A stretch of DNA of 64,000 nucleotides from Candidatus Hydrogenedentes bacterium ADurb.Bin170. GTDB taxonomy: Bacteria; Hydrogenedentota; Hydrogenedentia; Hydrogenedentales; CAITNO01. The position numbers were made by a program, and so were the translations under genes. The notes under the pieces were generated by a model. It was not told the DNA's origin, made no database searches, and saw nothing but the letters and a program-made list of their open reading frames with translations. The stretch is from the NCBI GenBank assembly GCA_002070275.1, contig MWCY01000007.1, forward strand, positions 3,704 to 67,703, in the 5' to 3' direction. Positions within the stretch are counted from its first letter, which is position 1; each line of letters begins with the position of its first letter. Shown piece after piece: positions 13,301 through 63,388 of the stretch.

Positions 13301-14064
13301 CACGTGTATCGGGGCAGGTTGAGGCAGATGCGGGTATCACACCCGACCGCGCCGTGGCCCTTGCCAAAGCCGGCGATCTGCCTGTCTGGTTTATCAGCCG
13401 CTGGGAGCAGGGAAATACGCTGCTGCTCAACCATCCATTTCGCATGCCTGTTGGTGACTTCCTGGCGGAAATGGCATGTCTTAATGAATTCATAACTGAC
13501 AGTTCTGCATCCTCACCACAGCAGGTTCCGACCGATCCCGGTTTTCAGGGCATGGTGTACCATTTTCGTTATGATTCAGCGGTCATCTATGTAATACTTG
13601 CCGCACCATCCGCACCGGTGCAGCCACTGCCCCTTCATTTCACGAAAAAAGACAGCGTATATCTGCCTTTAACAGGAACCAGAGTTGCACACCCACACCG
13701 CCTTAAGATCCGCCTGAATGGCGGAGAAAGTTTGGCTCTCGTTCACCTCCCCAAAGACGCGAAGCCCTTAAAAATACATTCAACGGAAACTGCTGCAGAA
13801 GGTCAGCGCCTGGAGATACGTCTGACAAGTGACGGCGCGGAGGAAGACCCGGTAAAAAGACTGATCCTTCTGGATCTTCTTGGTGCTGATCAGACTGTGA
13901 TACCGTGGTATCGGCATGTCGCTGTCCTTGAAAAAGGGCATGGAGCAAGCTATTTTCCCCTGTCATTGAACCAGCAGCCGGGCCGTTATGTGGTACGTGC
14001 CCGGGATCTTCTTACCGGTGCCGTTGTGGAAAAACCCGTCAAAGTCACTTCGATCATCAACTGA
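10399..14064 (+). CDS. large secreted protein with a GH42 (beta-galactosidase)-like catalytic-domain signature
   Basis: 1221 aa with an N-terminal signal peptide. The segment CRCGYCLEAWHQVLREKYTSLEALNRQWGTHFSEWEQI matches the GH42 Cys-cluster / LNxAWGT.FWS region. An N-terminal region is glutamine-amidotransferase-like, resembling the GH42 trimerisation domain. The overall architecture is non-canonical. Confidence 0.5.
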   Translation: MSLCKKSYFLLLAFFCLLTAVPSVNALPSYGKKAVPVPAGTAQPWGKPLAGGAVKVLLVAPQHTLQDAAELKKRLDVDCRVVPLWDAEHAGYDPIAYGTISSAETDAEVFSRLEKELRQPADVLILANFNISLLPERILSEVLFKVSQGTGLLTAFDRSPVDGPLAAFFDNLQEEADTDSISGGIGECAFPGGLELRQIIRSYVHGKGKIVCLDYPGDFPRRNALVQSPADPYDLESAWEENAWSFVVRAICYAAGRRPEVRIARIEDGAPSGPAEDEIPPDFYPEFIQAMKDSAVSQPSRPFVIRLNKPADKKYNVELQIRRPGSSTRITYEEANAFSKDSEFHIVEVPAGPGPCLFDVWLKDRSGITDWFTALLQVPGWPDFYQLELEKQWLMPNDSLDISAKVRPFANQSRQACLYARATDGFERVVAQSVESVGSDGGTATVRLHFTDLISPLIRLEVYAVEGGPRSFSETELHSAYREVRFLSVRQRLEPPQMELGASLPAPSEYGDLSLLKMLAQEGVRTVHAPAGESTIIRVSEKGLTLLPELEHISVNEALDGKYRVPCLNDPSYRISLEETLKTGTLRHWAGTRGRYSLGNGNVLCATEEAVCRCGYCLEAWHQVLREKYTSLEALNRQWGTHFSEWEQIDTVDVPPVNEQTRTVSYQVDFSTFMDSQFAGFHQWLHEQIRLIDGSAVAGARFFSDTNPSHGYCWPELCRALDFVIADYSPLILEKIASYTAPGNWNGLVLHPSDAGQNGAAFLQIPWQMLTHQIPVLWLEALSGEAEKADGNTWFDVQGSLSEALTAITRTVRQLQDMIAPLILASEKKPPAIAVYDSHPSRHLPKSVSGYNTTFLDSQNAVSACLRRSNRDFAFIDKERLDGLRQDTFSTLILPFCVALDDEETEAIFTFVARGGTVAADVLPGNFDTHGGKRLNNRFASLFGVDQKPDSRQCTELLVTTEDVEGRTRVSGQVEADAGITPDRAVALAKAGDLPVWFISRWEQGNTLLLNHPFRMPVGDFLAEMACLNEFITDSSASSPQQVPTDPGFQGMVYHFRYDSAVIYVILAAPSAPVQPLPLHFTKKDSVYLPLTGTRVAHPHRLKIRLNGGESLALVHLPKDAKPLKIHSTETAAEGQRLEIRLTSDGAEEDPVKRLILLDLLGADQTVIPWYRHVAVLEKGHGASYFPLSLNQQPGRYVVRARDLLTGAVVEKPVKVTSIIN

Positions 14065-41962: not shown

Positions 41963-44692
41963 TTGGCAACCTCGGATTCTAAAGACAAAAAGGAATTGTC
42001 CTTTTTTATTCTTTTTCTAGTGCTGGGTCTGTTTTTCCTGTCGGGTGCCTGCTCCCTTGTGTATCAGGTCGTATGGACCCGGAAGCTGGCACTGCTTTTC
42101 GGTGTCACCTCCCATGCTGTAAGCACCGTCCTGAGTGTTTTTTTTCTGGGGCTTGGTGCAGGCAGTTTTGCTGGCGGACGGATTGCCGACCGAAGCAGGC
42201 ATCCGCTGCGGCTTTACGGTCTTTTTGAATGCATTGTCGGGGTGAGCGCTGTCCTGGTGCTTTTGCTGCTCTCTGTCAGTGAGTCCTGGATCCCGACTGC
42301 ACTCCGGCTCTTTGATTTTTCCAGAACCACAGGCGTTCTTTTACGCGCAATACTGAGCTTTCTTCTTCTCTTTATTCCTGTAAGTCTCATGGGCGCAACC
42401 CTGCCTCTCTTAACACGCTTCGCTGTGCGCGCTCAGGAGAAAACCGGGTTTCACGTCAGTATTCTCTATGCAGTGAATACTTTCGGCGCAGTTGCCGGGT
42501 GCGCCACAGCAGGCTTCGTGCTGATTGCGTCTCTGGGATTTTCAAAAACTGTATATCTTGCCGCTGCCCTTAATATAGGCGCCGGACTGGCTGCCGTTCT
42601 GCTCTCTCTGTTGAAGGAGCCTTTAACGCAATCGGCGGTTCCCGAAAACGATAATGCTACACCGGGGTGTGGCAGCCGGGGTGGTGCCGGTCCGATGCGG
42701 CTGCTGATATTTGCAACGGCACTTTGCGGCTTTTGCGGGCTTGCCGCTGAAGTAGTGTACACGCGGCTCCTTTCCATTGTTTTTCTGGGAACCACTTACG
42801 CCTTCACCACTATGCTGACAGCATTTCTTTGCGGTATTGGCGCTGGTGGCGGTTGCGCCGCTCTGATCCAGCGGAAAATGCGCAAAGAAAATGCGCTGCT
42901 TCTTGTGGGGCTTATTTCGGGCGGTATAGCTGTTGCCATGCTCTGGAGTCTTCCGTGGATTGCTGGACTTCCGGACCGTTTTCTTGACCTTCAGCGCAGC
43001 ACCGGGCTTGTGTGGGATGCCACACTGCGCGGCACCTTTTTTCTTGCCTTTCTAACATTATTTCCCATGACTTTTCTTTTTGGAGTGGCATTTCCTCTGG
43101 TCATCGGGGCGGGCGGATTATGGCGAAAATCAGTGGGCAGTCTGGTGGGACTGATGAACGGCGCCAATACGCTGGGCGGTGTTGCCGGTGCGATGGCGGG
43201 CGGCTTTTTTCTTCTGCCTTTGCTGGGGAGCCAGAACAGCATAACCTTCCTCGCAGTTCTTTTGCTGGTAAATGGTCTTGCCTTGATTGTACTGGGCAGA
43301 ACATCGGGTAAAAGTATCCGGGTCTCAATCGCTTCAATACTTCTTCTTTGTTTTTTTGTTACATTCCTTTTTTTGCCTGCGGACGTGAATCTGGCTTTAA
43401 ATAAAGGATATATGCCCCGGGATCATGAAGTGCTTTATATGAAGGAAGGCACAGAAGGAACCGTTGCCGTGAGCGGTCCCGTTGGTGCACAGCATGGCGA
43501 AGACCGGGTTTTATGGATTAACCGGGTGCAGGCGACCACTTCCATTGAACGGGGCGTTAAAATGAACCGTTTGCAGGGCGTTTTGCCGCTTCTTTTTGAT
43601 CGAACCTGCGAGCGGGTTCTCTTCATGTGCTTTGGATCCGGCATTACCTGCGGTACGCTCGCACTCTCGCCCTTTGAACAGATCGATGCGGTAGAGATTA
43701 GTCCGGAAGTACTCGCAGTAGCTCCATACTTTGATAAAGACAATCTGGGTGTCCTCTACAATCCGGCTGTTTCTTTTCATATTGATGACGGCAGAAATTA
43801 TCTGCTCAGAACAGACCGGAAATATGACCTCATTACCTTTGAACCCATGCCACTGGCGCTGGCAGGTGTCTCCACTTTTTACACAGAAGAGTACTATCGT
43901 TTGTGCCGAAAATGTCTTGCTTCTGGCGGCATCGTATCTCAATGGATCCCTTTGCACAGCAATGACCCTGAAATGGTGAGATCGCTGGTGTTTACTTTTA
44001 TCTCCGCTTATCCTGAATATTGTGCGTTTTTTGTCAATGCGGATCTTTTTCTGCTGGGGTCGGACATGCCGTTGCGCCTGAATTATGCCAAGGCAAAGGA
44101 ACGGCTGAAAAATTCTGTTCTTGCAGATGCGCTGGAAAAATCCGGGCTTGGTGATCTCGCTGAAATTATGTCCTTCTATCTCTTTGATAAACAGGCACTG
44201 GATGCTTACGTATCCGGGGGTGTCAGTATGAGCGATGATCTGCCCTGGGCGGAGTTTACCGCGCCCCGGCTTGTCTATGCCCGTCTTGTGCCTGAAGCGG
44301 TAGATACTCTTTTGCCTTTTATCAGCAATCCGCTGGAAGCAGTGATTCCCGGGAGTATTACTGCTGAAGAACGCCAGCGCCTGGAAAGACGCTGCCACTC
44401 CCGCCGCCTTGATTTTCCTGCATTGAAAGAATATTACGGAGGCAGCATGTTTGATGACAGGGCGGCCGATGGTTTCGCTGCCTCTCTCGAAGCTGATCCG
44501 GAAAATCTGAATGCGCGCTATTACCTGAAAACGATTGTGCTGGCACAGGGAGAGCGTTTTCTTCAGTGGGATGACTGGGAGCGGGTTATAGCCCTTACGG
44601 GGAAAGCACTTCGCTTCATGCCGGATGATAAGGATTTGACTGAACTTTATCAGGCGGCGGAGCAAAAGAGAGACTTGTCTGCGGGCAGATAA
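41963..44692 (+). CDS. fused polytopic membrane (MFS-like) / spermidine-synthase-like / TPR protein
   Basis: At least 12 N-terminal transmembrane helices. The central region (VLFMCFGSGITCGTLA...EISPEVL...DLITFEP) resembles the PABS/SpeE fold. The C-terminal repeats are TPR-like. The likely start is TTG 41963 with a GGGAG ribosome-binding site. Confidence 0.7.
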   Translation: MATSDSKDKKELSFFILFLVLGLFFLSGACSLVYQVVWTRKLALLFGVTSHAVSTVLSVFFLGLGAGSFAGGRIADRSRHPLRLYGLFECIVGVSAVLVLLLLSVSESWIPTALRLFDFSRTTGVLLRAILSFLLLFIPVSLMGATLPLLTRFAVRAQEKTGFHVSILYAVNTFGAVAGCATAGFVLIASLGFSKTVYLAAALNIGAGLAAVLLSLLKEPLTQSAVPENDNATPGCGSRGGAGPMRLLIFATALCGFCGLAAEVVYTRLLSIVFLGTTYAFTTMLTAFLCGIGAGGGCAALIQRKMRKENALLLVGLISGGIAVAMLWSLPWIAGLPDRFLDLQRSTGLVWDATLRGTFFLAFLTLFPMTFLFGVAFPLVIGAGGLWRKSVGSLVGLMNGANTLGGVAGAMAGGFFLLPLLGSQNSITFLAVLLLVNGLALIVLGRTSGKSIRVSIASILLLCFFVTFLFLPADVNLALNKGYMPRDHEVLYMKEGTEGTVAVSGPVGAQHGEDRVLWINRVQATTSIERGVKMNRLQGVLPLLFDRTCERVLFMCFGSGITCGTLALSPFEQIDAVEISPEVLAVAPYFDKDNLGVLYNPAVSFHIDDGRNYLLRTDRKYDLITFEPMPLALAGVSTFYTEEYYRLCRKCLASGGIVSQWIPLHSNDPEMVRSLVFTFISAYPEYCAFFVNADLFLLGSDMPLRLNYAKAKERLKNSVLADALEKSGLGDLAEIMSFYLFDKQALDAYVSGGVSMSDDLPWAEFTAPRLVYARLVPEAVDTLLPFISNPLEAVIPGSITAEERQRLERRCHSRRLDFPALKEYYGGSMFDDRAADGFAASLEADPENLNARYYLKTIVLAQGERFLQWDDWERVIALTGKALRFMPDDKDLTELYQAAEQKRDLSAGR

Positions 44693-48570: not shown

Positions 48571-50517
48571 TTATCTTATATGTTTTGCGCTGCAGTTGCA
48601 ACTTAGTTTGTCGAAAAATTCCGACCATGAACGGAACATGAATCCGGTCTTATTCTTTTTGAGGTATTGCCTGTATAGCCCGAAAAAAGTATAGGGATCG
48701 CAAAAGACCCAGTCATCGCCCTTATGCCGTTCTTGTACAGCGGCAATAACTTTTTTCATCGTGGAGGGTGACTGCAGAATCCAGCGAAAGATCAGAAATT
48801 GCGGTGTTTCCGCTTTTCCGAAAGCGATCATCTGATCCGCTGCTTTTTCCGGATGATTTCTGTCCGGGTAGATATCGGAGCTGTGTCTCAGAAAGGGTGT
48901 ATTGTTTACCAGGCTTTTTTCCATTCCCAACTGCATGCCGACACCTTCCGGGGAAAAACGGCTGTACGCGTCCTGTATTACCAAAGGCATTTCTCCATGA
49001 AAACCGTTAATCACAAAGCCGGTAATGGAGTAGTCGAAGCGTCTGTAATACTTTTCGTTATGCGAAACCCACAATTCTAATGCTTCGGGAAGACCGCTGC
49101 CTGCACGGTCACCTATAAGAAGGTTAGGGTTCAGATACCCTGCTCCTGAGTCTCCGGCAATAAACCAGTCCTGCGGTGATGCCGTGCCGTAAAAATGGTC
49201 GAACACATGAGGCACTCTGTCGGACAGGTTGGGGTTGAATGCCCACGCTATGGGCAAGGTGCCTCTGTTCGGATCATCCCAAAATAAGGGCACATGCCGG
49301 GAAAGCCAGGCGGCAGAATCATAATCTCCCATATAAATCAGCACATAATGCTTGTTTTCGAGAGGGGGCAAAGCGGGCCGTGGTTGCTGGCTGTATTTCT
49401 TTTTTAGCGGATAATGCCTGTAAGCGGACGCATTCGTAAGACACGCCAGTCCCAGCGCATCTGCATCAAGAAAGGCGTTATATCTGCTGAAGAGGGAAAC
49501 ATATTCCCATTCCGTCGGGACAGGTTCATGCAAACCACCGGCTGCGCCGTGATTAGTATACTTCAGATCCCACGATACAAAACCGCCAATGGAAGTAAAA
49601 CACTTACCGTGGTTTTGGTGGTACTGGCTGTTGAGCAAAGCGACGAGTGTTTCATAATCGGTACCCGGGGACTGTGCTGGATCATCCACCGGGAGTTCAT
49701 CCTTCCAAGCCAGCAGATCAAAGAAAAACGCACGATTAGCAATGAAATAATCGTGATTTGTTACCATGGAGTTGGGAAGATCCCTGTAGTGAAATCCGGG
49801 CTTTCCAGGCTGCTGTGAATAAGCGTCAATATAAAAAGCCATCAGAGCAGGATTGCATTTCCCTTTATCCAGATACTCTCTTTTCGCCCAGAGATAAGCA
49901 TCGCATTTTGCACTGCCGCTTTCCGCTCCTGTAAAAAGTCCGCACAGATTCCTGCCTTTATTCGTTTCAAAGCCGGATTCCTGCAGAAATGGAAGCAAGG
50001 GGCTGTCGGCGCGCAGTGGCAGAAGCTTTTCTACGCCGCAAATAGTAGCCGCCACGTTGGCAGTAGCAGGAACAGCTGGATCCCAGAGAACAAAACCATT
50101 GTAGAATTCCTTAAAGCGCTGAAGCACCACACGTAAAGAACGAACGTTTTCTGTATGCTGCAGTACTTTCCACTGTTCTTTTGTAATTTGCAGCCAGTAG
50201 TCATCCAGATTTATACGGCCACCCTGCCCTTCTCCTTCAAGAAAACGAATCAGCATGCGGGGGGCATCACGGTTGACGAGACCCTGTAGAGATGCCACCA
50301 GCTTCAACGCATCATAACGCGCAACCGAATCGTCGGGAATCTCTTTGAAAATTTCATCAACCCATACATATACAATCGGAACCTCTCCATCATCAGGAGA
50401 ATGGTGGGCAGTATACACATCTGGTCTTTTATGCTCCTCAGCATCCAGTTCTTTTGCTTCACAGCAGTTCGCCAAGGCGATGCACATAAAAACCAGGATT
50501 CCCGTGAATTTAACCAT
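48571..50517 (-). CDS. secreted hypothetical protein, possibly GxGYxYP-family (putative glycoside hydrolase-like)
   Basis: Signal peptide on MVKFTGILVFMCIALA. The start was set at 50517, which has an AGGAACA ribosome-binding site. A GDSGAGYLNP motif resembles the GxGYxYP signature. This assignment is weak. Confidence 0.4.
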   Translation of the reverse strand: MVKFTGILVFMCIALANCCEAKELDAEEHKRPDVYTAHHSPDDGEVPIVYVWVDEIFKEIPDDSVARYDALKLVASLQGLVNRDAPRMLIRFLEGEGQGGRINLDDYWLQITKEQWKVLQHTENVRSLRVVLQRFKEFYNGFVLWDPAVPATANVAATICGVEKLLPLRADSPLLPFLQESGFETNKGRNLCGLFTGAESGSAKCDAYLWAKREYLDKGKCNPALMAFYIDAYSQQPGKPGFHYRDLPNSMVTNHDYFIANRAFFFDLLAWKDELPVDDPAQSPGTDYETLVALLNSQYHQNHGKCFTSIGGFVSWDLKYTNHGAAGGLHEPVPTEWEYVSLFSRYNAFLDADALGLACLTNASAYRHYPLKKKYSQQPRPALPPLENKHYVLIYMGDYDSAAWLSRHVPLFWDDPNRGTLPIAWAFNPNLSDRVPHVFDHFYGTASPQDWFIAGDSGAGYLNPNLLIGDRAGSGLPEALELWVSHNEKYYRRFDYSITGFVINGFHGEMPLVIQDAYSRFSPEGVGMQLGMEKSLVNNTPFLRHSSDIYPDRNHPEKAADQMIAFGKAETPQFLIFRWILQSPSTMKKVIAAVQERHKGDDWVFCDPYTFFGLYRQYLKKNKTGFMFRSWSEFFDKLSCNCSAKHIR

Positions 50518-50776
50518 TGTTCCTGCCTGTTTTGGGTGGAGACCACGCGTTTTTGGTGTTAAAAGTGGATGAAAACGCATTATTCATATAATTGTCAACT
50601 GCACTTTAAAAGGACACATGTCAGCCCTTTTGAGACAGAGAAAAATAACTTGATATATCAATTGACTTATGTTATACTTGTTATGGTCAGTGCCATATAT
50701 GGCGTTTCTCCTTCCGCGGAGGCCTGGTGCGAACGAGCGTCAGGCCTCTTTTATATTGCCGGATTTTCTGTCCTGT

Positions 50777-52637: not shown

Positions 52638-53504
52638 GTGCGGAGTTTTTACATGGATGACTATCAGAAACAGTTCAATCAGATTATAGATGAGGTGCGC
52701 CTGCTTGCAAAAAAACATGCTCGAGGAAGACCGCCCCATATCCTGTTATCCAAAGAAACAGCAGAGAAACTGCTGCAGATTGACGCATTGAAAATGCGGA
52801 CTGAGAAAGAGGCGTGTGCCGCAAATATGCCTCCGGAACAGGAGTCCTGTAATAAGGCGCAGGACAGCGCAGGAATGCCTGCAGTATCAGGAAAAGATAC
52901 TGATGCCCTTGCCATTTCTGTATCTTCGCAGGCAGCGCTGGAAGCGATTGCTGAAGAAATTCTTATCTGTAAAAAGTGCCATCTTAGCGAAAAGCGAACC
53001 AAAGCGGTTCCGGGCGAAGGCTCTGTAAATGCTTCGCTGGTCTTTGTTGGCGAAGCGCCCGGTGCCTCCGAAGATGCCCAGGGCAGGCCCTTTGTCGGGA
53101 GATCGGGACAATTACTGACAGATATTATAGAAAAAGGCATGCAGTTGACGAGGCAGGATGTTTTTATCTGCAATGTGGTGAAATGCCGTCCTCCGGACAA
53201 CCGTGTGCCTTCTCCCGACGAGGTGCGTATATGTGAGCCTTATCTGCTGCGCCAGTTGGAGATTCTCAAGCCTAAGGTGATTTGCGCATTGGGCTCAGTT
53301 GCGGCACAGACACTGCTGAAAACCACCGATCCCATTTTTAAATTGCGTGGCCTTTGGCATGACTACCATGGCATCGCCTGTCGCGTTACCTATCATCCGG
53401 CGTATCTGCTGCGTAATCCTCCTGATAAAAAGAAGGCGTGGGAAGACATTCAGGAAATCATGCGCTTTATGAGAGAGAATGAAATTCCCCTGTCGCCCCA
53501 ATGA
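52638..53504 (+). CDS. uracil-DNA glycosylase, family 4 (Fe-S type) with an N-terminal extension of about 90 aa
   Basis: Motifs GEAPGASED...GRPFVGRSGQLL and Cys ligands (CKKCHL, VVKCRPP, CEPY). Its stop overlaps the start of the next gene. Confidence 0.8.
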   Translation: MRSFYMDDYQKQFNQIIDEVRLLAKKHARGRPPHILLSKETAEKLLQIDALKMRTEKEACAANMPPEQESCNKAQDSAGMPAVSGKDTDALAISVSSQAALEAIAEEILICKKCHLSEKRTKAVPGEGSVNASLVFVGEAPGASEDAQGRPFVGRSGQLLTDIIEKGMQLTRQDVFICNVVKCRPPDNRVPSPDEVRICEPYLLRQLEILKPKVICALGSVAAQTLLKTTDPIFKLRGLWHDYHGIACRVTYHPAYLLRNPPDKKKAWEDIQEIMRFMRENEIPLSPQ

Positions 53505-54895
53505 CTTCCAGAACAGCCACCATGACCAATGCATCTTTTGTCGCCCCTCCCTTACGCTGGAGACGCTCATTGTTTTTCCGGGTTGTCCTCCTGTGCGCCG
53601 TACTGCTGATTTGCCTTCTGGCATCGGTCATCGTGATCACCCACCACTTTTTTCAGGAAATCATGCGTCAGATGGAAACGCAGGCTATGGAGATCGCGCA
53701 CAGTCTGGAGATTCAAATCGAAGAGGGATTTGACGGCGATTACGAAGCGCTGGGCAGTAAATTAATGGATCTGTATCACGGAGTGGACATTAAACTGGAT
53801 GAACAAACCGGAGACTTGGGTGCGGCAACCTTTACGCTGCAAAGGCTTGATGATGGTTCTATTGTTCGCATGGCGCGTGTGCCGATCGTCAATAATGATC
53901 AGCCAATGGTCATGACTGTCATTATGAATATTGCGCCCAAAACGGAAATATTGCGGGCATTCCGCAATCGTAATCTGGTTATTCTGATAATTGTTTTTCT
54001 GGTAACTTTAGGGTTTATGGTCTATTTCATCGGCAAAGCACTGCGCCCTCTTGCTGTTCTATCTGAAAGCTGCGCTGCTGTCACTGAAGGGCATTTGCGG
54101 CCTGTCAATACGCAAGGGGCTGTCGGAGAAGTGCTTCTTCTCGAAAATACCTTTAACCGTATGATCACCAGTCTCCACGAAAAGGAGCTGATGGAAGCGA
54201 AGCTCCGTCAGGCGCAAAGGCTTTCGGCGCTGGGCAATCTTGCTGCCGGCATCGCCCACGATGTCCGCAATCCTTTAAATGCTATCAAACTGCTGTCAAG
54301 TCACGCTGCAGCGCTTCTGGAAAATGACAACCACCCTGCCGAAAAATCATTGAAGACCGTGAGCCGGGAAGTTGACCGGCTGGAAGAAATTGTTTCCAGT
54401 TTTTTGTCGCTTGCCCGCGAGACTGAAATGCATCGTGAGTTTGTTGAAATTGACGGTCTTGTGGCGGAATGTGTTCGTTTATTTCAAAAAGAGGCGGAGT
54501 CACGGAGCGTCAGACTGACTCATGATCTCCGCTGTTCCGGGCTGAACCTTTATCTGGATGCGAAACAGTGTACGCGTGCTGTTTTAAACGTGCTGATGAA
54601 TGCGATCGATGCCTGTCCGCCCGATGGTAGAGTACGTGTGTTTACGCGTCGAACAACAACGCACTGTGAAATTGAGATAAGAGATGATGGCCCGGGTATC
54701 CCGAAAGAGGTGATGGATACTGTTTTCGATCCCTATTTCACTACCAAGCCGGGAGGTACAGGGCTGGGGCTGTCCATTACTCGCAGTATTGTTGAAGAAC
54801 ATGGCGGCACCATTCAACTTTCGGCTTCCTCAGACAGAGGATGTCAGGTGCTCATCGTTTTTCCTCTGGATAAAGCTGCTGGAGTAGTTCAATAG
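53501..54895 (+). CDS. sensor histidine kinase (2 TM, periplasmic loop, HisKA, HATPase_c)
   Basis: H-box (AAGIAHDVRNPLNAI) and G-boxes (DDGPGIP, GGTGLGLSI). The ATG overlaps the UDG stop (ATGA). Confidence 0.85.
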   Translation: MTSRTATMTNASFVAPPLRWRRSLFFRVVLLCAVLLICLLASVIVITHHFFQEIMRQMETQAMEIAHSLEIQIEEGFDGDYEALGSKLMDLYHGVDIKLDEQTGDLGAATFTLQRLDDGSIVRMARVPIVNNDQPMVMTVIMNIAPKTEILRAFRNRNLVILIIVFLVTLGFMVYFIGKALRPLAVLSESCAAVTEGHLRPVNTQGAVGEVLLLENTFNRMITSLHEKELMEAKLRQAQRLSALGNLAAGIAHDVRNPLNAIKLLSSHAAALLENDNHPAEKSLKTVSREVDRLEEIVSSFLSLARETEMHREFVEIDGLVAECVRLFQKEAESRSVRLTHDLRCSGLNLYLDAKQCTRAVLNVLMNAIDACPPDGRVRVFTRRTTTHCEIEIRDDGPGIPKEVMDTVFDPYFTTKPGGTGLGLSITRSIVEEHGGTIQLSASSDRGCQVLIVFPLDKAAGVVQ

Positions 54896-54900
54896 AAAAC

Positions 54901-56286
54901 ATGCAGAAACAAAGAATTCTTGTAACAGAAGATGATCAGGTGCAGCGGGAGATCATCGCCGATATACTCGAATATGCCGGTTATGAAGTGCGGCCCTGCT
55001 CCTCAGGAGCGGAGGCGCTTAAAGCGTTGCAGGAGGAAAATTTTCATGTCCTGCTTACCGACATGAAAATGCCGGGCATGGACGGGTTGGAATTGTTGCA
55101 GCAGGCAAAAAGGCAGTGTCCTGATCTGGATACTGTGGTGATGACGGCGCACGCCACCATCAAAACGGCTGTGACTGCCATTAAAGAGGGTGCTGCTGAT
55201 TATCTTGAAAAGCCTTTTGGAAAAGATGAGCTGTTGCTTGTGATGGATCGGACGCTCGAGAGAGGACGGCTCAGGCGCGAGAATGCCCTTCTTTCCCGGC
55301 TTGTAGATGATTCTGTTTCTCTCGGTAATATCATCGGTCAAAGTCATGCAATGCGGGAAGTGTATGAGCGCACCAGGCGTGCTGTGCAGGTGCCGAGTAC
55401 GGTGCTGATACAGGGCGAGTCCGGTACTGGTAAAGAACTGATAGCCCGCCATATCCACTTCACGGGTCCCCGGGCGAAGAAGCCATTTATAGTTGTCAAT
55501 TGCGCAGCTATTCCTGATATGCTGGTAGAATCGGAACTTTTCGGCCATGAAAAAGGCTCGTTTACAGGCGCTGACAGCATGCGCACCGGAAAATTCGAAT
55601 TAGCGGATGGTGGCACGCTGTTCCTGGATGAGATTGGCGACATGCGTCTGGAAAGCCAGGCAAAGCTGCTGCGAGTACTCCAGGACGGACTGATAGAAAA
55701 AGTAGGAGGCTCAAAAAGCCGGAAAGTTGATGTGCGCGTCATTGTTGCGACCAATCAGGATTTGAAACGATGCGTTGCCGAGGGGACTTTCCGTCAGGAT
55801 CTTTATTACCGTCTGGAAGTGCTTTCCATTACCATGCCGCCTCTTCGGGAACGTATGGAAGACCTTCCTTTGCTGATCAATCATTTCAAAAATAAAATTG
55901 GCAGGAAACTGAATATTTCTGTTCCGGAAGTGGGGCCGGATGTGCTGGAAGCCTTCCGGTGTTATCGCTGGCCCGGTAATGTGCGAGAGCTGGAGAATAC
56001 CCTGGAGGAAGCATTTATCCTTGCCCGTTCTCCCCTGCTTCGAAAGCAGGATCTGGCTTCGAAATTTCAAAGCCCGGAGCCCGAGGTCTCAGACATCAAA
56101 CTGCCGCCGGGGGGACTTGATCTTGAAGAGCTGGAGCAGGAACTGATCCGTCAGGCACTGGAACGCAGCGGAGGCAGCATTAAAGCGGCTGCTCCTGTTC
56201 TCGGTATGACTTATAAAACGCTGCAATACCGTCTTAAAAAATACAATATCGACCCGAAAGGCGATGCCGAAGACACCGGAGAATAA
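54901..56286 (+). CDS. sigma-54-dependent response regulator (NtrC family: REC + AAA+ + Fis-type HTH)
   Basis: REC domain Asp (LLTDMKMPGMDG), Walker A (GESGTGKE), GAFTGA-like motif (GSFTGA), and a C-terminal helix-turn-helix. Confidence 0.9.
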   Translation: MQKQRILVTEDDQVQREIIADILEYAGYEVRPCSSGAEALKALQEENFHVLLTDMKMPGMDGLELLQQAKRQCPDLDTVVMTAHATIKTAVTAIKEGAADYLEKPFGKDELLLVMDRTLERGRLRRENALLSRLVDDSVSLGNIIGQSHAMREVYERTRRAVQVPSTVLIQGESGTGKELIARHIHFTGPRAKKPFIVVNCAAIPDMLVESELFGHEKGSFTGADSMRTGKFELADGGTLFLDEIGDMRLESQAKLLRVLQDGLIEKVGGSKSRKVDVRVIVATNQDLKRCVAEGTFRQDLYYRLEVLSITMPPLRERMEDLPLLINHFKNKIGRKLNISVPEVGPDVLEAFRCYRWPGNVRELENTLEEAFILARSPLLRKQDLASKFQSPEPEVSDIKLPPGGLDLEELEQELIRQALERSGGSIKAAAPVLGMTYKTLQYRLKKYNIDPKGDAEDTGE

Positions 56287-56362: not shown

Positions 56363-57310
56363 TTATTGGGCAAGCAGACCGATAGCGTTGGCGATTAGAG
56401 CATTGCAGGGAATATCACCTTGCGCCTCATACTTCTGGAACGCAACGTGGCCATCCATAAACAGCACATTGCAGCCGCCGGGAATATGATTGAACAGCTG
56501 ATCCGCTCCTGTGTTGGAGAGAAGGTCGGACATAATCAGGATCTCACTCTGCGCTTTATTGCTTGCCGCAGGGTTGTTAATGTCCGTGATCATAAAACGT
56601 TCCACACCTTCGCGAAGCCTGTAAATAGTATCTGAAGTGCCGTTGCCGCTGTTGGGATAGGCGAAGGGACCTTTGAGATCAGAGTCCAGCGCTTCCGGTT
56701 TCGGTTTCCAGTCGTCTCCGACCGCAGTGATTTTAAAATAGGCAGATGCAACCTGGTTGGATACTTCCAGAGTTTTACTGCCAACAGTAAGCTGGAACAC
56801 ATCAGAGGGGCTGATGGTCTTCATGCTGGCTTTATCTACAATAAAACCAAGATAGAAATAACTCATGTCGGGCTGGGCGATCATCCCTTCATACTGAAGG
56901 CAACCCGGTTCCTGGGCTGAGATTTCGGGCGTCATCATTTTAACGCCACCTTGACGGGCACTGGATGGACAGTTAAGAACGTTGATGTCCGTAAGGTATT
57001 CAGGGTAAATAGCAATGCCGGAAGGGCCGAGCGCCGGATAATCGTAATGCTTGTTGCATGTGGGATCCGGGTCAATAACGGGTCCGTCCCAGATCGGATA
57101 TCCCTGCATGGGCGGGAACTTGTTGGACGGTGATTCACCGGCGTACATTTTATAAATAATGCCCATTTGCTTCAGGTTGTTCGCACAGGAAGAACGACGC
57201 GCCGCTTCCCTTGCCCGCGCAAGGGCGGGCAGTAAAATTGCTGCAAGAATGCCGATAATGGCAATAACGACCAATAATTCAATCAGAGTAAAACCATGCC
57301 GTTTGTTCAT
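56363..57310 (-). CDS. prepilin-type N-terminal cleavage/methylation domain protein with a DUF1559 (H-X9-DG) domain
   Basis: N-terminus [43 protein letters not shown]. The start was set at 57310, which has an AAGGGA ribosome-binding site. This protein family is hugely expanded in Planctomycetes, Lentisphaerae and Verrucomicrobia. Confidence 0.85.
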
Positions 57311-57549: not shown

Positions 57550-57579
57550 TTGACAGAACTTTAATTTATCTGGTAGTAT
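57550..57579 (+). promoter_or_regulatory. sigma70-type promoter (TTGACA-N18-TAGTAT) for the PA14/C-type-lectin gene
   Basis: -35 hexamer TTGACA at 57550-57555 and -10 hexamer TAGTAT at 57574-57579, about 90 nt upstream of the ATG at 57672. Confidence 0.5.
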
Positions 57580-57671
57580 CATTGTGTGCAGGCATGTATT
57601 CTTTTATAACCTATTCACAATGGTGGTAACACAACAGCAAACTGGCAGGTCAGTAAACCCGGAGAGTGCAA

Positions 57672-59687
57672 ATGAAAAAGATATTATTATCCAGTCTTCT
57701 TCTCTTATGCCTTTCATTGTCTTTTCTCATGCCTCAAGCGGAAAGCGAGGCGCTTCAAATCAACTTTGATCAGAAGATGCTTAATCTTTGGACTAAATCA
57801 GCGTGGTGGGATATTATTATTGCAACAGACTACCTGCCAGAGGCTTTCTCGCTTCATCCTGACGTATGTGACATCAATGGCGGCTTTGATATTTCGGTAA
57901 AGCCGATTGAACTGTACCCGAACAATATGCTGGAGAGCGACGAATTTGCGCTGTTTGCTGCTATTCTTGCAGACCCATCGTATGATGCCACCGCCCGGGG
58001 CGGCGTTTCTCACCAGATGGTCTATGATGCCTGGACACAAAATTTCAACCAGATCAGACTTGATCTGGGATGCTGTGTCGGTGGACCGGAAAATGTATTT
58101 ACCATGTTTCCGGATATTGACTATCTGATTGCCGCACTGATCACGCTCGGCGATCAGGATAGTCTCGCCTTTCCCATGATTCTATTGGACCTGGTTGTAA
58201 ATAACGATACTGTAGCGCAGCTGGTGCACGATCCGAATGTACGCATGATCGACTTGGATAATTACAAGCTGATGCGTGAGTATCTTGCCTGGTGCGGGGA
58301 TGCGGATGGAGACGGCTGCTCCAATTTTTCAGAATACAGTCATTTTAAAGCCCAGGGCGGCCGGGCAGCGTATCTTAATGCGGCGATGAATTTTGCACAA
58401 AGACCGCCAGGCTGCACGGGCAAAGATCGGCTTTGCGATGGAACAGGCGGACTGCATGCCGAATATTTTAATACCCGTTTTATGACTGACCTGGCAATGA
58501 CGCGTATTGATCAGCAGGTTACCTTTAATTGGGGACGGAGTGCTCCTAGCTCGCGAGTGAATGCCAACGACTTTACCGTCTGCTGGACGGGCTGGGTGAT
58601 CCCGGACTATACAGAAAACTACACTTTTTATACACGTACCGATGACGGTGTGCGCCTTTGGGTTGACAACGAACTGTTAGTTGACCAGTGGAAGGCGCAA
58701 AGCTCCACGACATATACGGCCGTCAAAGATCTGGCTCTGGTAGCCGGGAAAAAATACCCTATCCGCATGGATTATTATGAGCAGGGCGGAGATGCCGTAG
58801 CCTGGCTCGGATGGTCAAGTCCCCGGCAGACAAACGGAAAAGCAAAAGCCATATATGAAATCAATACAAAACCGGGCATTGGTCTTGGCGATCGCGCTTC
58901 CGCCTGGATTCAGAATCCCAATAATGGGCATATGTACAAATTAACGGAACCTCTGAGCTGGTTCGACGGGCGTACCCGGGCGGATTCTTTAGGCGTGTAC
59001 ATGGTCACGGTGAATGATGAGCGGGAAAACCAGTGGATCAGACATACTTTTGGCGTGCTCGATAAAAGCATTTACATCGGTGCCAATGATATTGATGAGG
59101 AAGGACGCTGGGTGTGGCAGGAAAACGGCACTCAGTTCTGGAGTGGAGTCGCCGACGGAAGTGCAGTAAATGGTCGCTACAGCAATTGGAACAGCAACGA
59201 GCCCAACAACTACAATGATCACGAAGACTGCGGGATGATGTACGGTTCCTCCGGAAAGTGGAACGACCTGTCCGGCACGGCGCTAAATCCTGTACTCCTG
59301 GAGAAAAATGCAGGTGTGGTCATTGTCGAAGGACCCTTCCCGGCAAATGCTACGATACGTGCCGGAAAGAAATTCCAGTTTCAAGTGGATGTTCTTCAAT
59401 CCTGGGGCACAATATCCTACCAATGGACGCATAACGGCGTGGATATTCCCGGTGCAACTTCGGACGTGCTGAATTTTGACCCTGTGGTCGAAGAAGACGC
59501 GGGACTGTATGCCTGCAGACTGACAGACGGCACGGGCGCCCATGCGGAAACAGGGACAGCGGCACTTTCCGTGACACCCGGCGGCGTCATGCCGTTGCTG
59601 CATTCAGCTTCCTTGCTGCTTTTGGTTGCGCTTCTTATGAGTATTGTTGGTGCCGGCGCACTCTACCGGAGAAATGCTGCCTTATAA
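57672..59687 (+). CDS. secreted multidomain protein: unknown N-domain + PA14 + C-type lectin CRD (EPN/WND) + Ig-like domain + C-terminal hydrophobic/Arg anchor
   Basis: Signal peptide present. PA14-like region (GLHAEYFN...DFTVCWTGWV...YEQGGDAVAWLGW). C-type lectin domain with EPN and WND calcium/sugar-site motifs (NSNEPNNYNDHEDCGMMYGSSGKWNDLSG). An Ig-like region (GLYACRL). The tail is PGGVMPLL + about 20 hydrophobic residues + YRRNAAL. The start was set at ATG 57672, which has a GGAGAG ribosome-binding site. Confidence 0.7.
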   Translation: MKKILLSSLLLLCLSLSFLMPQAESEALQINFDQKMLNLWTKSAWWDIIIATDYLPEAFSLHPDVCDINGGFDISVKPIELYPNNMLESDEFALFAAILADPSYDATARGGVSHQMVYDAWTQNFNQIRLDLGCCVGGPENVFTMFPDIDYLIAALITLGDQDSLAFPMILLDLVVNNDTVAQLVHDPNVRMIDLDNYKLMREYLAWCGDADGDGCSNFSEYSHFKAQGGRAAYLNAAMNFAQRPPGCTGKDRLCDGTGGLHAEYFNTRFMTDLAMTRIDQQVTFNWGRSAPSSRVNANDFTVCWTGWVIPDYTENYTFYTRTDDGVRLWVDNELLVDQWKAQSSTTYTAVKDLALVAGKKYPIRMDYYEQGGDAVAWLGWSSPRQTNGKAKAIYEINTKPGIGLGDRASAWIQNPNNGHMYKLTEPLSWFDGRTRADSLGVYMVTVNDERENQWIRHTFGVLDKSIYIGANDIDEEGRWVWQENGTQFWSGVADGSAVNGRYSNWNSNEPNNYNDHEDCGMMYGSSGKWNDLSGTALNPVLLEKNAGVVIVEGPFPANATIRAGKKFQFQVDVLQSWGTISYQWTHNGVDIPGATSDVLNFDPVVEEDAGLYACRLTDGTGAHAETGTAALSVTPGGVMPLLHSASLLLLVALLMSIVGAGALYRRNAAL

Positions 59688-59709: not shown

Positions 59710-61794
59710 TTAATCAGCTGAGGCGTTGCGAAGGCGGCGCCTCAGTTCTTTTGCACTGGAGATGGGTGGCAGACAACTTCGATGCAAACAGAGGTATACG
59801 GCGCTGTGTGTGCTCTGATTTGTCTGTGGAGGGGCTGTGGCATCATCAGAAGATTCAGGATCTCTTTCGAGTTTAAGCAGAGTATTCAGCGGCGCCTCCT
59901 GTCGCAGCACTTCCAGTAACGCTTCCAAATCCGCAGCAGTGCATCCAGGGCGAAGGGTTGCTTCTGTAAATCCGTGCTGCAGTGTGTCGGCAAAGAGTGC
60001 CAGATGCAGGTGGCCCTGAACGGCATTTTGTGCGCTCGGAGCGCCTGTCTGCCACACAGTTAGTGCAGCGTTTTCAAAAGCAGGTTCATCACAGTGCCAT
60101 GCCAGTTTCATAAGTCCCAGTGCCGCTGTGCTTGCAGCAGATACTTCCGCTGCATCATGCACTGTCTTCATGCGTGCGAAAAGATGCTTATGCTGCTCGC
60201 CGGTAGTGAAAAAACCGCCATTCTTTTTATCCAGAAAAAGATGAATCATACGCTCCCCTGTTCCCTTTGCAAGAGCAAGCCACCGCCTGTTAAAAGTGCA
60301 TTGGTAGAGATCTAAAAAGGCATTGGTTACCGTGGCGTAATCTTCCAGATAAGCCGGATGCGATGCCTTGCCGTCACTCCATATCCTGAAGAGCCCTTCA
60401 TCGGACAGCAGATGCGTTTCTACAAAGTGCCCCGCTTTTTCTCCGGCATCCCGGTAAACATCATTTTTCAGATAAAAGGCTGCCTTTGCCAGAGCCGTTA
60501 TCATGAGTCCATTCCACGAGGCTATGACTTTGGTGTCAAGACCTGGACGGATCCGGCGGCTTCGTTTTTCTAAAAGTATTTTTCTGATTGTGTCCCACGG
60601 TTCTCCGATGATCCACGCCTTTGCAGAAAGAATATTCAATCCCTCATGCCCCGGTTCATGAGACTCAAAATTGCCTTTTTCGCTGACAGAAAAATGCTTT
60701 TTCAAAAATGCCAGATGCTCTGCGCTGAGCCCCTTTTGCAGCTCCTCATAAGACCACAGATAAAATTTACCTTCCAAGCCTTCACTGTCTGCATCTTCTG
60801 AACTGTAAAAAGCGCCTTCCGGACTGGTCAGATCTCGAAGTACATAGTTTAAAATGGACTCAGTAATATGCCTGTGCTTCTCTTTTGCAGTACTCTGCCA
60901 CGCTTCAAGGTAAGACAAAACAAGGTGGGCGTTGTCATAAAGCATCTTTTCGAAGTGTGGCACTTGCCATTGCGCATCAACAGAATAACGATGAAAACCG
61001 CCGCCCAGATGGTCGTGTATCCCCCCTGCCGCCATACACTCCAGCGTTTTTTCCGCCATATGAAGATAATGAGGTATCTCTCGCCTTTTCCCGTTTCGAA
61101 GCAAAAGGGCAACCGCTGCATGCGACGGAAACTTGGGGGCGTCGCCCCACCCGCCCCATTGGGAATCAAAAGTTGCCGCAAGCACAGCCAATGCCTGATC
61201 GACCAGTGTTTCAGGTTCGACCATATGGCTGGCTGGGACTACCGTAAAATGATGTTTTAAACGGTCTGTCAGTGCCGCTGCCTGAGTCTGTATGCGGCTT
61301 CTATCAGAACGCCACAGGCGGGCGATTTCCTCGAGTATCTGGCTGAATCCGGGTATGCCATATCGGCTTGTTGGCGGGAAATAAGTCCCGGCATAAAATG
61401 GCTCCAGATCAGGAGTCAGAAAAATGCTCGCAGGCCACCCGCCCCTGCCGGTCAGTGCCACGACTGCGCTCATATACAGATCGTCCAGATCCGGTCTTTC
61501 TTCCCGGTCAACTTTTATATTGACGAAGAAACGATTCATCAGAGAGGCGATTTCAGGATTATCGAAAGATTCGTGCGCCATTACATGGCACCAATGACAG
61601 GCGGCATAGCCGATAGACAAAAAAATGGGCTTATCTTCCAGCTGCGCCTTCAGAAGTGCTTCCTCGTCCCACGGCTGCCATGCAACGGGCTGAAGCGCAT
61701 GCTGCCGAAGGTACGGGCTGGATGCACCGGAGAGCCGGTTTAAATCGGACAGGACTTTGTCTGAGGTTGAATCTGAATCCGTAAGGGATACCAT
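59710..61794 (-). CDS. thioredoxin-domain protein of the YyaL/DUF255 family (thioredoxin-like N-domain + six-hairpin glycosidase-like C-domain)
   Basis: The N-terminal region [23 protein letters not shown]...[15 protein letters not shown] is typical of DUF255. About 690 aa, as for YyaL. Confidence 0.8.
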
Positions 61795-61850: not shown

Positions 61851-63257
61851 TCAGCGGCAGCATTCCTCTTTGAGTTCGTCAAAGCGATTCCGCATGCGCT
61901 TCAGCAGCGGTTCATATTCCTCTTTGCCTGCCAGATTAATTACCTCATCCGGATCTGCATTCAGGTCAAACAACTCTTCATACAAAGGATTCTGCTCATG
62001 ATACCGCAGATACTTGTATTCCCGGGAAACGACTCCTTCCGACTTCGGGATTCCGGGGTGATGGAAGTTGTGTTCGTAGAAAAAATCGCTACGCCACATC
62101 GATTTTTCTCCTTGCATCCGGGACACAAGGCTTTTCCCCTGCATTGTATCAGGAATAGGAATATTAGCAAGTTCAAGGATAGTGGGAGCTATGTCAATAT
62201 TCAGTACGGGAATGTAATGTCGTACGTCCTGTTCTTTTCTGCTGCTCCGGGGGTCATAAATAATAAGAGGCACCCGGATGGACGCTTCATAGCCGTACCA
62301 CTTCCCTGCCAGACCGCTGTCCCCCAGAAAAAAGCCATTATCTGAGGTAAAAATGAAAAGAGTATTTTCGCCAAAGCCCAGAGCGTCCACTTTATCGCGT
62401 ATCTCGCCGGCTACTCTGTCCAGACCGGTAATCAGACGGTAGTATTTTCGAATACTTTCCTGCTGCATTTCAGGCGTGGCGAAGCGGAGTTTCCACCGGC
62501 GGCGTGCTTCGTTGTTGTCTCTGAAAAACTCGGGGAACCTGTCCTCATAAGAGACCGTGTTTGAAGCGGGCACCGGCATGATCAAATCCGCATATAAATC
62601 ATTATATTCCTCTTCATGGATAAATTGCCGTGCATCGCCGTCCTGACAATGGGGCGCTTTAAAACTGACATTCAGGCAGAAGGGTCTGTCTTTCGGGCAA
62701 TTTTCCAGAAAAGCCAAACTATCCTCTGCTGTGATACGGTTCAGATGCCTGAATGTGCCTGCTTCATCGAAATTCTCATAGTTGCCCTGGCCGCCGAAAC
62801 CGCGCCAGAAGTCGAATGCTTTTTCCGGAAGCTCAGTGCCGACGCCGTATTTGCCCACAAAACCTGTGTAATAACCATGATTTCGCAGCAGAGCCGGGTA
62901 GCATTGGGCAAAGGCTTCCGGAGTGAAGGTTTTAGCAAAATCATCAATGCCGTGGCGGCAGACATATTGCCCGGACAGTATGGAAGCACGACTTGAGCAG
63001 CAGATAGACGTTGTAACTCTGCACTGATCAAACACCTGTCCTTCGGCCGCCAGCCGATCCAAATGAGGTGTTTGAATCACTGGATTGCCCATACAGCCCA
63101 GGGTGTCCCACCGCATATCATCGGCCAGAAGAAAGACTATATTCGGGCGAATGGTTTCTTCTGCCTTAATCCTGCTGCTGAGGGTCTGCGAAAGCACAAG
63201 CCCCGCCCCGGCGGCGAGGCACTGATTGAAACGGCGTCTGCTTATTGTACTCATCAT
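61851..63257 (-). CDS. Cys-type sulfatase with a Tat signal
   Basis: Tat motif (SRRRFNQCLAAGAGL). Sulfatase N-domain with the active-site segment TTSICCSSRASILSGQY and metal ligands (LLADDMRWD). The start was set at 63257, which has an AGGGAGAAA ribosome-binding site. Confidence 0.85.
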   Translation of the reverse strand: MMSTISRRRFNQCLAAGAGLVLSQTLSSRIKAEETIRPNIVFLLADDMRWDTLGCMGNPVIQTPHLDRLAAEGQVFDQCRVTTSICCSSRASILSGQYVCRHGIDDFAKTFTPEAFAQCYPALLRNHGYYTGFVGKYGVGTELPEKAFDFWRGFGGQGNYENFDEAGTFRHLNRITAEDSLAFLENCPKDRPFCLNVSFKAPHCQDGDARQFIHEEEYNDLYADLIMPVPASNTVSYEDRFPEFFRDNNEARRRWKLRFATPEMQQESIRKYYRLITGLDRVAGEIRDKVDALGFGENTLFIFTSDNGFFLGDSGLAGKWYGYEASIRVPLIIYDPRSSRKEQDVRHYIPVLNIDIAPTILELANIPIPDTMQGKSLVSRMQGEKSMWRSDFFYEHNFHHPGIPKSEGVVSREYKYLRYHEQNPLYEELFDLNADPDEVINLAGKEEYEPLLKRMRNRFDELKEECCR

Positions 63258-63388
63258 TTTCTCCCTGCTTGCCTGATTATCCGCTTTTACCTTATTTGCT
63301 TCAAGAGCGGTCTGTGATAGACTGGTAGACATACTGTAAACCTGTGTTGTCTGCAAGTGTATAAAAGGTTTTTCTTGTGAATTCCAAA

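Follow-up and report, generated by a model that had tools for sequence, protein, structure and literature searches.

A gene on the forward strand of contig MWCY01000007.1 from Candidatus Hydrogenedentes bacterium ADurb.Bin170, within the 64,000-nucleotide stretch analyzed here (the window), encodes a 671-aa protein (57672–59687, +; stop codon 59685–59687) in which a C-type lectin domain (CTLD) is combined with a PA14 domain, an Ig-like domain, an N-terminal module of an undescribed family and a hydrophobic C-terminal tail. With moderate confidence, we read this protein as a cell-envelope, bivalent, calcium-dependent lectin that is specific to the Candidatus Hydrogenedentes/Hydrogenedentota lineage. 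The open reading frame (ORF), whose translation contains the peptide NWNSNEPNNYNDHEDCGMMYGSSGKWNDLSG and ends in TPGGVMPLLHSASLLLLVALLMSIVGAGALYRRNAAL, is a real coding gene; a 99%-identical protein is present in NCBI (P0001), and 29 full-length homologs with 42–69% identity were found. The conservation counts given below refer to these 29 family members.

The C-type lectin domain and its predicted calcium sites

The cysteine-poor CTLD spans aa 412–545 (58905–59306, +), as supported by Pfam, an AlphaFold2 (AF2) model and Foldseek. Pfam Lectin_C (PF00059) matched aa 428–541 with an E value of 9.5e-12 and 46 bits (cut-off, 22.6). When the query was compared with PDB sequences by phmmer, the animal C-type lectins matched included Endo180/mannose receptor 2 (4e-13), then mincle, CD23, collectins and DC-SIGN, and a profile built from the family CTLDs reached mannose-receptor-family CTLDs with E values down to 1e-25. 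The lectin region was modeled on 25 family sequences with a pLDDT of 91.4 and a pTM of 0.85. In a Foldseek search of the PDB with this model, the top 50 matches were all C-type lectin domains (E values of 1e-10 to 1e-8), with target-normalized TM scores of 0.7–0.87 for single-domain carbohydrate-recognition domains (CRDs). The top matches, among them Endo180, CL-K1, SRCL, MGL, CEL-I, CD23, DC-SIGN, mincle, SP-D and MBP, were exclusively animal sugar-binding CRDs. The fold assignment is a prediction rather than a solved structure; on the combined evidence of profile search, PDB sequence comparison and predicted fold, the domain is a genuine C-type lectin domain. The earlier note, which had been made from the DNA sequence alone, had claimed as much and had proposed to check the claim by HMMER searches against Pfam and by structure prediction of the EPN/WND region. 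Lectin_C and PA14 both scored above their cut-offs, with values far beyond chance, and the region was predicted to adopt a C-type lectin fold, so that this part of the note holds.

The putative calcium and sugar site, EPNNYNDHEDCGMMYGSSGKWND, covers aa 510–532 (59199–59267, +) and was located by conservation and by alignment with animal CRDs. For rat mannose-binding protein A (MBP-A), Weis et al. in 1992 reportedly described D161, E165, N188 and D194 as site 1 ligands and E185, N187, E193, N205 and D206 as site 2 ligands, and we take this numbering as the basis for assigning site 1 and site 2 roles to positions of the query. At site 2, the EPN motif is nearly invariant (E510 in 28/29, P511 in 29/29 and N512 in 28/29 homologs), and the downstream glutamate (E518) and the WND motif (W530, N531 and D532) are each present in all 29. 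At site 1, D473 and E477 are likewise kept in 29/29, position 513 is Asn or Asp in 28/29 and D519 is found in 23/29. In a residue-level alignment, EPN, EDC and WND of the query fall in register with the same motifs of Endo180 CTLD2 and bovine mincle, with an insertion of 10–13 residues before the EPN loop in the family relative to animal CRDs. The EPN and WND motifs pointed out in the earlier note are thus present and conserved. As judged from the alignment, the CTLD retains all ligands of both calcium sites and, because these are kept across homologs that are only 42–69% identical, the predicted sugar/calcium site is intact and under selection. In animal CRDs, EPN directs binding to sugars with equatorial 3- and 4-hydroxyl groups, such as mannose, glucose, N-acetylglucosamine and fucose; by analogy, a preference for mannose, glucose, N-acetylglucosamine or fucose is predicted for the query.

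The resemblance to animal CRDs (mincle, Endo180/uPARAP CTLD2, CD23, collectins and DC-SIGN) therefore extends over the predicted common fold, EPN, the glutamate, WND and the site 1 positions. The query differs from these domains in the longer segment before the EPN loop, in its bacterial host and in the loss of both canonical disulfides. It also differs in setting, as it lies in a chain with PA14, Ig-like and novel modules, whereas the animal domains occur in collagen, neck or transmembrane contexts.

Loss of the canonical disulfides

The earlier note had described a conserved Cys pattern flanking the motifs, which was not found. The CTLD region of the query (aa 405–548) contains a single Cys, C520, which occupies the C2 position (59229–59231), and the family CTLDs contain 0–4 Cys each, with no Cys column conserved among the 29 members. 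C1 (helix α1) and C3 (WNDxxC) are missing in 29/29. Cys occupies the C2 position in 6/29 and, unpaired, the C4 position in 17/29; the query has Val at C4 (V541; 59292–59294). The two conserved disulfides of C-type lectin domains (C1–C4 and C2–C3) are therefore absent. In all family CTLDs, the lone C2 and C4 cysteines occur without C1 or C3 partners. From this distribution, they look like relic half-cystines of a disulfide-bonded ancestor. General avoidance of Cys by the protein does not account for the loss, as judged from the sequence, because the N-terminal module has invariant or near-invariant Cys at positions 66, 208, 216, 248 and 255. The earlier note had held that a missing disulfide framework would speak against a C-type lectin domain. 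That framework is indeed missing, yet the profile match, the predicted fold and the conserved ligands still point to a CTLD; we regard the disulfide test as too strict because the CTLD fold prediction holds without disulfides.

PA14 and Ig-like domains

The PA14 domain (aa 260–388; 58449–58835, +) was assigned by its match to Pfam PF07691 (E value of 3.6e-27; 95.4 bits, cut-off 24). The closest PA14 domains in the PDB are the polysaccharide-sensing pair of RsgI3, an anti-sigma factor of Clostridium thermocellum (6qe7; E value of 7e-58 by phmmer), which a second PDB comparison also returned (1.8e-61). In PA14 lectins, two consecutive Asp residues (DcisD) hold the sugar-binding calcium (PMC8092209). 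The query has TDDG (D324 and D325) at this position, where D325 is invariant (29/29) and D324 is kept in 28/29; TDDG is a candidate calcium/sugar motif. RsgI3 and MpPA14, from a Marinomonas ice-binding adhesin, share with the query the PA14 fold family, the Asp-Asp motif and extracytoplasmic glycan recognition, the last of these predicted for the query. Their host proteins differ from it: RsgI3 carries a cytoplasmic signaling domain at its N-terminus, whereas the topology proposed for the query leaves only ~7 cytoplasmic residues; MpIBP is a 1.5-MDa RTX adhesin, whereas the query has no RTX or type I secretion system features.

The Ig-like domain (aa 555–636; 59334–59579, +) was recognized from a subthreshold Ig_3 match, a PDB match and homolog annotations. 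In the query, Ig_3 (PF13927) covers aa 558–617 and, at 20.9 bits, falls short of its cut-off (30); many homologs are annotated with PF13927 or PF13895. The PDB matches comprise 9ncf_S (E value of 6e-14) and phage and bacterial Ig-like domains. The domain is probably a stalk. Of the fusions of the CTLD that had been proposed, the one to PA14 is therefore supported and the one to an Ig-like domain is probable. Among the homolog-search matches of the lectin family, PF00059 and PF07691 occur together in this family only.

Predicted export and topology, and the C-terminal tail

A Sec-type signal peptide was read from the sequence at ~aa 1–25 (57672–57746, +), where MKK is followed by a hydrophobic stretch and PQAES; its cleavage site is inferred rather than computed. 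An N-terminal hydrophobic leader with an A-x-A-like end is found in 29/29 homologs. A lipoprotein signal was considered and rejected, as LLLC at aa 10–13 has Leu at −1 and the Cys occurs in only 4/29 homologs. Taken together, the signal peptide, the PA14, CTLD and Ig-like domains, and the hydrophobic helix with its basic end make a cell-envelope lectin or adhesin a reasonable reading. Of the claim that the protein is a cell-surface lectin adhesin held by a PEP-CTERM-like anchor, the envelope lectin or adhesin part is accordingly retained as an inference from domains, signal peptide and tail; the PEP-CTERM anchor is not.

The C-terminal tail (aa 637–671; 59580–59684, +) consists of PGGVMP-LLHS, a hydrophobic helix of ~22 residues and YRRNAAL. 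It reads LLHSASLLLLVALLMSIVGAGAL up to YRRNAAL, and a hydrophobic helix with an Arg/Lys cluster closes all 29 homologs. The loose motif, helix and basic cluster thus follow the general PEP-CTERM design; the PEP motif and a model match are both lacking. The residues preceding the helix in the query (V-M-P-L-L-H) contain no Pro-Glu-Pro signature, whereas PEP-CTERM CTLD proteins show V-P-E-P; P641 is nearly invariant in the family, and the family logo, [LM]-P-[AVL]-[AL]-[SG], lacks Glu. The query tail gave no match to PF07589 at E ≤ 1 and none to the NCBIfam sorting models at E ≤ 10. Homolog tails scored 12–14 bits against PEP_CTERM, for which the cut-off is 16. When eight family tails were compared with curated sorting models, only that of P0013 passed, and marginally (IPTL-CTERM, 21.3 versus 20.5); none of ten consensus-like tails reached a curated sorting-model cut-off.

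A similar tail is present in 74 of 146 proteins with the N-terminal module (N module) described below. The tails of 64 N-module proteins, which could be aligned at the Pro, give the logo x-G-x-[LV]-P-[VA]-[AT]-G-G-L-G-L-A-L-L-A...RR[KR]K, clearly unlike the V-P-E-P-[AGS]-[ST]-L logo of PEP-CTERM CTLD proteins. The recurrent tail, [LVM]-P-[VA]-[AT]-G-G-L-G-L followed by a helix and RRKK, ends about half of the N-module proteins and also the closest short CTLD proteins (together, tails of P0129–P0265 and P0267–P0269). By motif comparison, the query tail is a diverged copy of this recurrent [LVM]-P-[VA]-[AT]-G, helix and RRKK tail, which may be a new sorting signal. Its order of motif, helix and basic cluster is that of the tripartite signals (PEP-CTERM/exosortase, IPTL-CTERM, MYXO-CTERM/myxosortase, GlyGly-CTERM/rhombosortase and LPXTG/sortase) and, as with those signals, the recurrent tail sits on many different proteins of one lineage. 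Unlike them, the query and family tails have no PEP, invariant Cys, GlyGly or LPxTG.

A search for exosortase genes had been suggested to explain the tail. None of the five polytopic ORFs of the 64-kb window is exosortase-like, and neither the window nor the regions up to 10 kb from the four tail-bearing relatives P0016, P0187, P0134 and P0148 contain a gene for an exosortase, sortase, rhomboid or CPBP protein. A histidine kinase and a sigma-54 response regulator are encoded just upstream of the lectin gene (53501–56286, +) and score 102 bits against PrsK (cut-off, 300) and 382.7 bits against PrsR (cut-off, 502.6). A role as the PEP-CTERM regulatory pair was rejected, as AtoS/AtoC and NtrC score above PrsK/PrsR and the pair is generic.

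In the topology that we propose, the protein would be exported by the Sec pathway through its cleavable N-terminal signal peptide and retained by the C-terminal hydrophobic helix, leaving the basic YRRN end (~7 residues) in the cytoplasm. It might then stay anchored or, more speculatively, be passed outward by a sorting enzyme that recognizes the Pro motif before the helix. The exposed chain would present, in order, the helical N module with its DxDxDG loop as a cap, the PA14 Asp-Asp site, the CTLD EPN site and the Ig-like stalk. Two different calcium-dependent sugar sites per chain would make the protein bivalent and allow low-affinity, high-avidity attachment to polysaccharides, perhaps on particles, matrix or other cells.

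Several observations weigh against this proposal. No other tail in the family has diverged as far as that of the query (VMPLLHS, and YRRN instead of RRKK), which matches no sorting model. In a diderm cell, a tail that serves only to hold the protein in the inner membrane would leave the lectin facing the periplasm instead of the outside. The canonical disulfides, which stabilize animal CRDs, are gone, so that the stability and loop geometry of the CTLD rest on prediction. The gene neighborhood is not kept in the homolog examined (P0016), so context gives no functional support.

In the strongest alternative, the protein is a periplasm-facing, inner-membrane-anchored glycan binder, its helix an unprocessed type I anchor and its ligands either imported oligosaccharides or precursors of the cell's own envelope or exopolysaccharide. 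The failure of the query tail to match any curated sorting signal, its degenerate pre-helix motif relative to the family logo and the lack of candidate sorting enzymes in the window and near the four relatives all fit such an anchor. The enzyme search, however, covered a tiny fraction of any genome. Moreover, the family and 64 other N-module proteins keep a Pro motif whose spacing from the helix that follows is constant. Such conservation is characteristic of tripartite sorting signals and would not be expected of a simple anchor. We consider the periplasmic arrangement unlikely and retain the envelope lectin as the preferred reading.

The N-terminal helical module

Between the signal peptide and PA14 lies a helical module (aa 26–256; 57747–58439, +) of an undescribed family. 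The ~250 N-terminal residues had been noted as having no assignable function, and this stands: no Pfam or NCBIfam model covers aa 1–255, the only trace being a weak ‘flexitail’ match (13 bits) at the GDADGDG loop. The module was confidently modeled and gave no fold match in the PDB; a new fold is possible. Its most conserved element, W-C-G-D-A-D-G-D-G-C-x-N-x-x-E-Y (aa 207–222), is invariant or nearly so in the family and corresponds, from its motif, to a calcium loop of the DxDxDG type with a Cys on either side.

A profile of the module retrieved 368 proteins at E ≤ 1e-3, 136 of them at E ≤ 1e-10, from 1.84 billion representatives. The module was found in N-terminal, internal and tandem settings, up to ~12 tandem copies of its core (profile positions 55–227) in the 2,051-aa protein P0121. 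Its partners include Ig, PKD, Kre9_KNH, BACON, GDSL-like regions and EF-hand plus dockerin, and its simplest architecture is a signal peptide, the module, Ig and the tail (P0136, 333 aa). Members with a named source are all ‘hypothetical protein’ entries of Candidatus Hydrogenedentes/Hydrogenedentota, and one member is encoded on a 5.1-Mb chromosome (OY782877.1). Where the membrane tail is lacking, N-module proteins often carry another conserved motif, ...LSELLRLIQFFNSGGYHxC...EDGFCPG, at the C-terminus (P0124–P0128, P0131, P0133, P0139, P0149, P0171, P0208, P0227, P0248 and P0250).

Because of the tandem repetition in P0121, we read the module as probably a structural or binding module, stabilized by calcium, rather than an enzyme. 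The opposite view, that it is a new glycan-active catalytic domain for which PA14 and the CTLD serve as targeting carbohydrate-binding modules, draws on the common association of PA14 and lectin-type modules with glycosidases, on several homolog-search matches in which PA14 occurs beside a glycoside hydrolase or glucose dehydrogenase domain, on the invariant acidic and His residues of the module (D67, E91, H114, D161 and D163) and on its combination with GDSL-lipase-like regions in relatives. Occurrence as ~12 core copies in one protein, or with only Ig or PKD and the tail in others (P0136 and P0148), is instead the behavior of a structural or binding repeat; the module also has no fold similarity to any solved enzyme, and its most conserved element is the calcium-loop motif. 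We hold an enzymatic role to be improbable.

A broader reading can be offered tentatively, at well under even chances. The lectin might be a client of a Hydrogenedentota-specific surface system made up of the undescribed N module and a new sorting tail with its own enzyme, and its cysteine-free EPN/WND domain, should it bind calcium and sugar, would be the first characterized bacterial canonical C-type lectin that we found. On the same reading, the ~170–230-aa N module would stand at the N-terminus of, or be repeated within, hundreds of exported proteins. The N module, as a possible new fold, and the non-PEP tail, as a possible new sorting signal, both of them shared by many Hydrogenedentota proteins, are the more original leads from this analysis.

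Related C-type lectin domains in bacteria

The family CTLD profile retrieved 158 relatives at E ≤ 1e-5 from 5.8 billion proteins. Among the best 120 of these 158, 103 are non-eukaryotic, and 58 of the 103 carry EPN...E[DNH]x...WND. Over their full length, these 58 proteins mostly contain 0–3 Cys, and many have a true PEP-CTERM tail of the VPEP type. Many relatives have been annotated automatically: some from Pirellulales, Phycisphaerales and Dolichospermum are named ‘lectin-like protein’, and others appear as ‘C-type lectin domain-containing protein [Planctomycetota]’ or ‘Lectin C-type domain/PEP-CTERM motif’. The earlier note had called canonical calcium-dependent CRDs rare in bacteria, which overstates the case; on these motif counts, cysteine-poor EPN/WND CTLDs are common in environmental bacteria. 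The Lectin_C and PA14 core of the finding is itself already auto-annotated in public databases. The 90% cluster of the query in NCBI is named ‘PA14 domain-containing protein [Candidatus Hydrogenedentes bacterium]’ (HOR49972.1; OQB33882.1, from ADurb.Bin170), and fragments in that cluster carry the name ‘lectin-like protein’. The protein is real but rather unexceptional within a large class of bacterial proteins with lectin domains.

The nearest CTLD relatives outside the family are bacterial PEP-CTERM lectin-like proteins of Planctomycetota, Pirellulales, Phycisphaerales, Poribacteria and cyanobacteria. They share with the query the cysteine-poor EPN...E[DNH]x...WND domain, a signal peptide and a C-terminal helix with a basic cluster. 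Most are single-domain proteins of 160–280 aa with a true VPEP motif, whereas the 671-aa query adds PA14, Ig-like and N modules and has [LM]-P-x-x-[SG] without Glu. Among the matches listed, the closest bacterial or environmental relatives score 100–175 bits and the best eukaryotic one, from an animal, 82 bits. Recent transfer from animals is therefore unsupported, because the nearest relatives of the CTLD are bacterial or environmental.

CTLD-type folds are classic scaffolds of diversity-generating retroelements. The lectin gene was rejected as a target of such an element, as blastn and tblastn searches of the gene against the 64-kb window matched only the gene itself and returned no template repeat, paralog or DNA repeat.

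A search of the literature collection available returned no paper on Hydrogenedentes lectins and none that characterizes a bacterial EPN-type CTLD. In a methanotroph biofilm study, a highly transcribed ‘C-type lectin domain protein’ was merely noted (PMC8788690). The characterized bacterial CTLDs that were found, those of intimin/invasin and Legionella Lcl-CTD, have no calcium or carbohydrate motifs (PMC11162425). That precedent, together with the 10–13-residue insertion before the EPN loop, might suggest that the query CTLD binds protein, mineral or ice and that EPN/WND only hold a structural calcium, which we judge the least probable of the alternatives, as such domains generally lose the EPN/QPD and WND ligands that are kept here at 42–69% identity, and the closest solved sequence relatives are sugar-binding CRDs.

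If the CTLD does bind sugar, as the preferred reading has it, a C-type calcium-dependent site would work without the disulfides long treated as a hallmark of the fold, and such sites would be widely used by environmental bacteria and not by animals alone. Lectin engineering would then gain a simple scaffold without cysteines, and the domain would open a way to study glycan attachment in a phylum of anaerobic digesters and microbial mats that, to our knowledge, has no cultured representative.

Distribution, gene start and neighborhood

Full-length relatives were found only in metagenome-assembled genomes (MAGs) that are named Hydrogenedentes, Hydrogenedentota, Hydrogenedens or Hydrogenedentales or are labeled uninformatively, plus three labeled ‘uncultured Nitrospirales’. 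Contigs with the last label that carry family or N-module genes are L005, L011 and L015; the Nitrospirales labels are probably a binning or labeling inconsistency. Several lectin-family paralogs occur per MAG.

The ORF can start at GTG 57666 or ATG 57672, both running to 59687 (+). ATG 57672 is the likely start; a GGAG ribosome-binding site, read directly, lies 7 nt upstream (57661–57664, +), and a promoter-like site is present. The latter is of the sigma-70 type (57550–57579, +; TTGACA-18 nt-TAGTAT with a TG extension) and agrees with the consensus at 10/12 positions, a consensus match only, of a kind that is no more frequent in the region than in shuffled sequence. No sigma-54 promoter of the form GG-N10-GC was seen by eye upstream of the gene.

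A conserved operon was rejected, as the neighborhood of the homolog P0016 is unrelated and the lectin gene stands alone. The product of the divergent neighbor (56363–57310, −) is a DUF1559 protein that resembles type II secretion pseudopilins and has a prepilin-type cleavage/methylation motif at its N-terminus; this gene is not kept beside homologs. The next gene, convergent with the lectin gene, encodes a DUF255 thioredoxin-like protein (59710–61794, −) and is followed by one for a sulfatase with an SGSH_C domain (61851–63356, −). Farther off in the window are genes for a 1,221-aa protein with a GH42-like region (10399–14064, +) and a GxGYxYP putative glycoside hydrolase (48571–50580, −). These predicted glycan-degradation functions fit a glycan-scavenging heterotroph, in agreement with MAG-based predictions for the phylum (PMC10866078), and do not tie the lectin to a specific pathway. 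Elsewhere in the window, a strong negative AT skew (−0.267) at 42001–44000 overlaps an ORF that resembles a 13-helix MFS transporter joined to a spermidine synthase (41963–44692, +), and its T-rich hydrophobic codons are sufficient to explain the skew.

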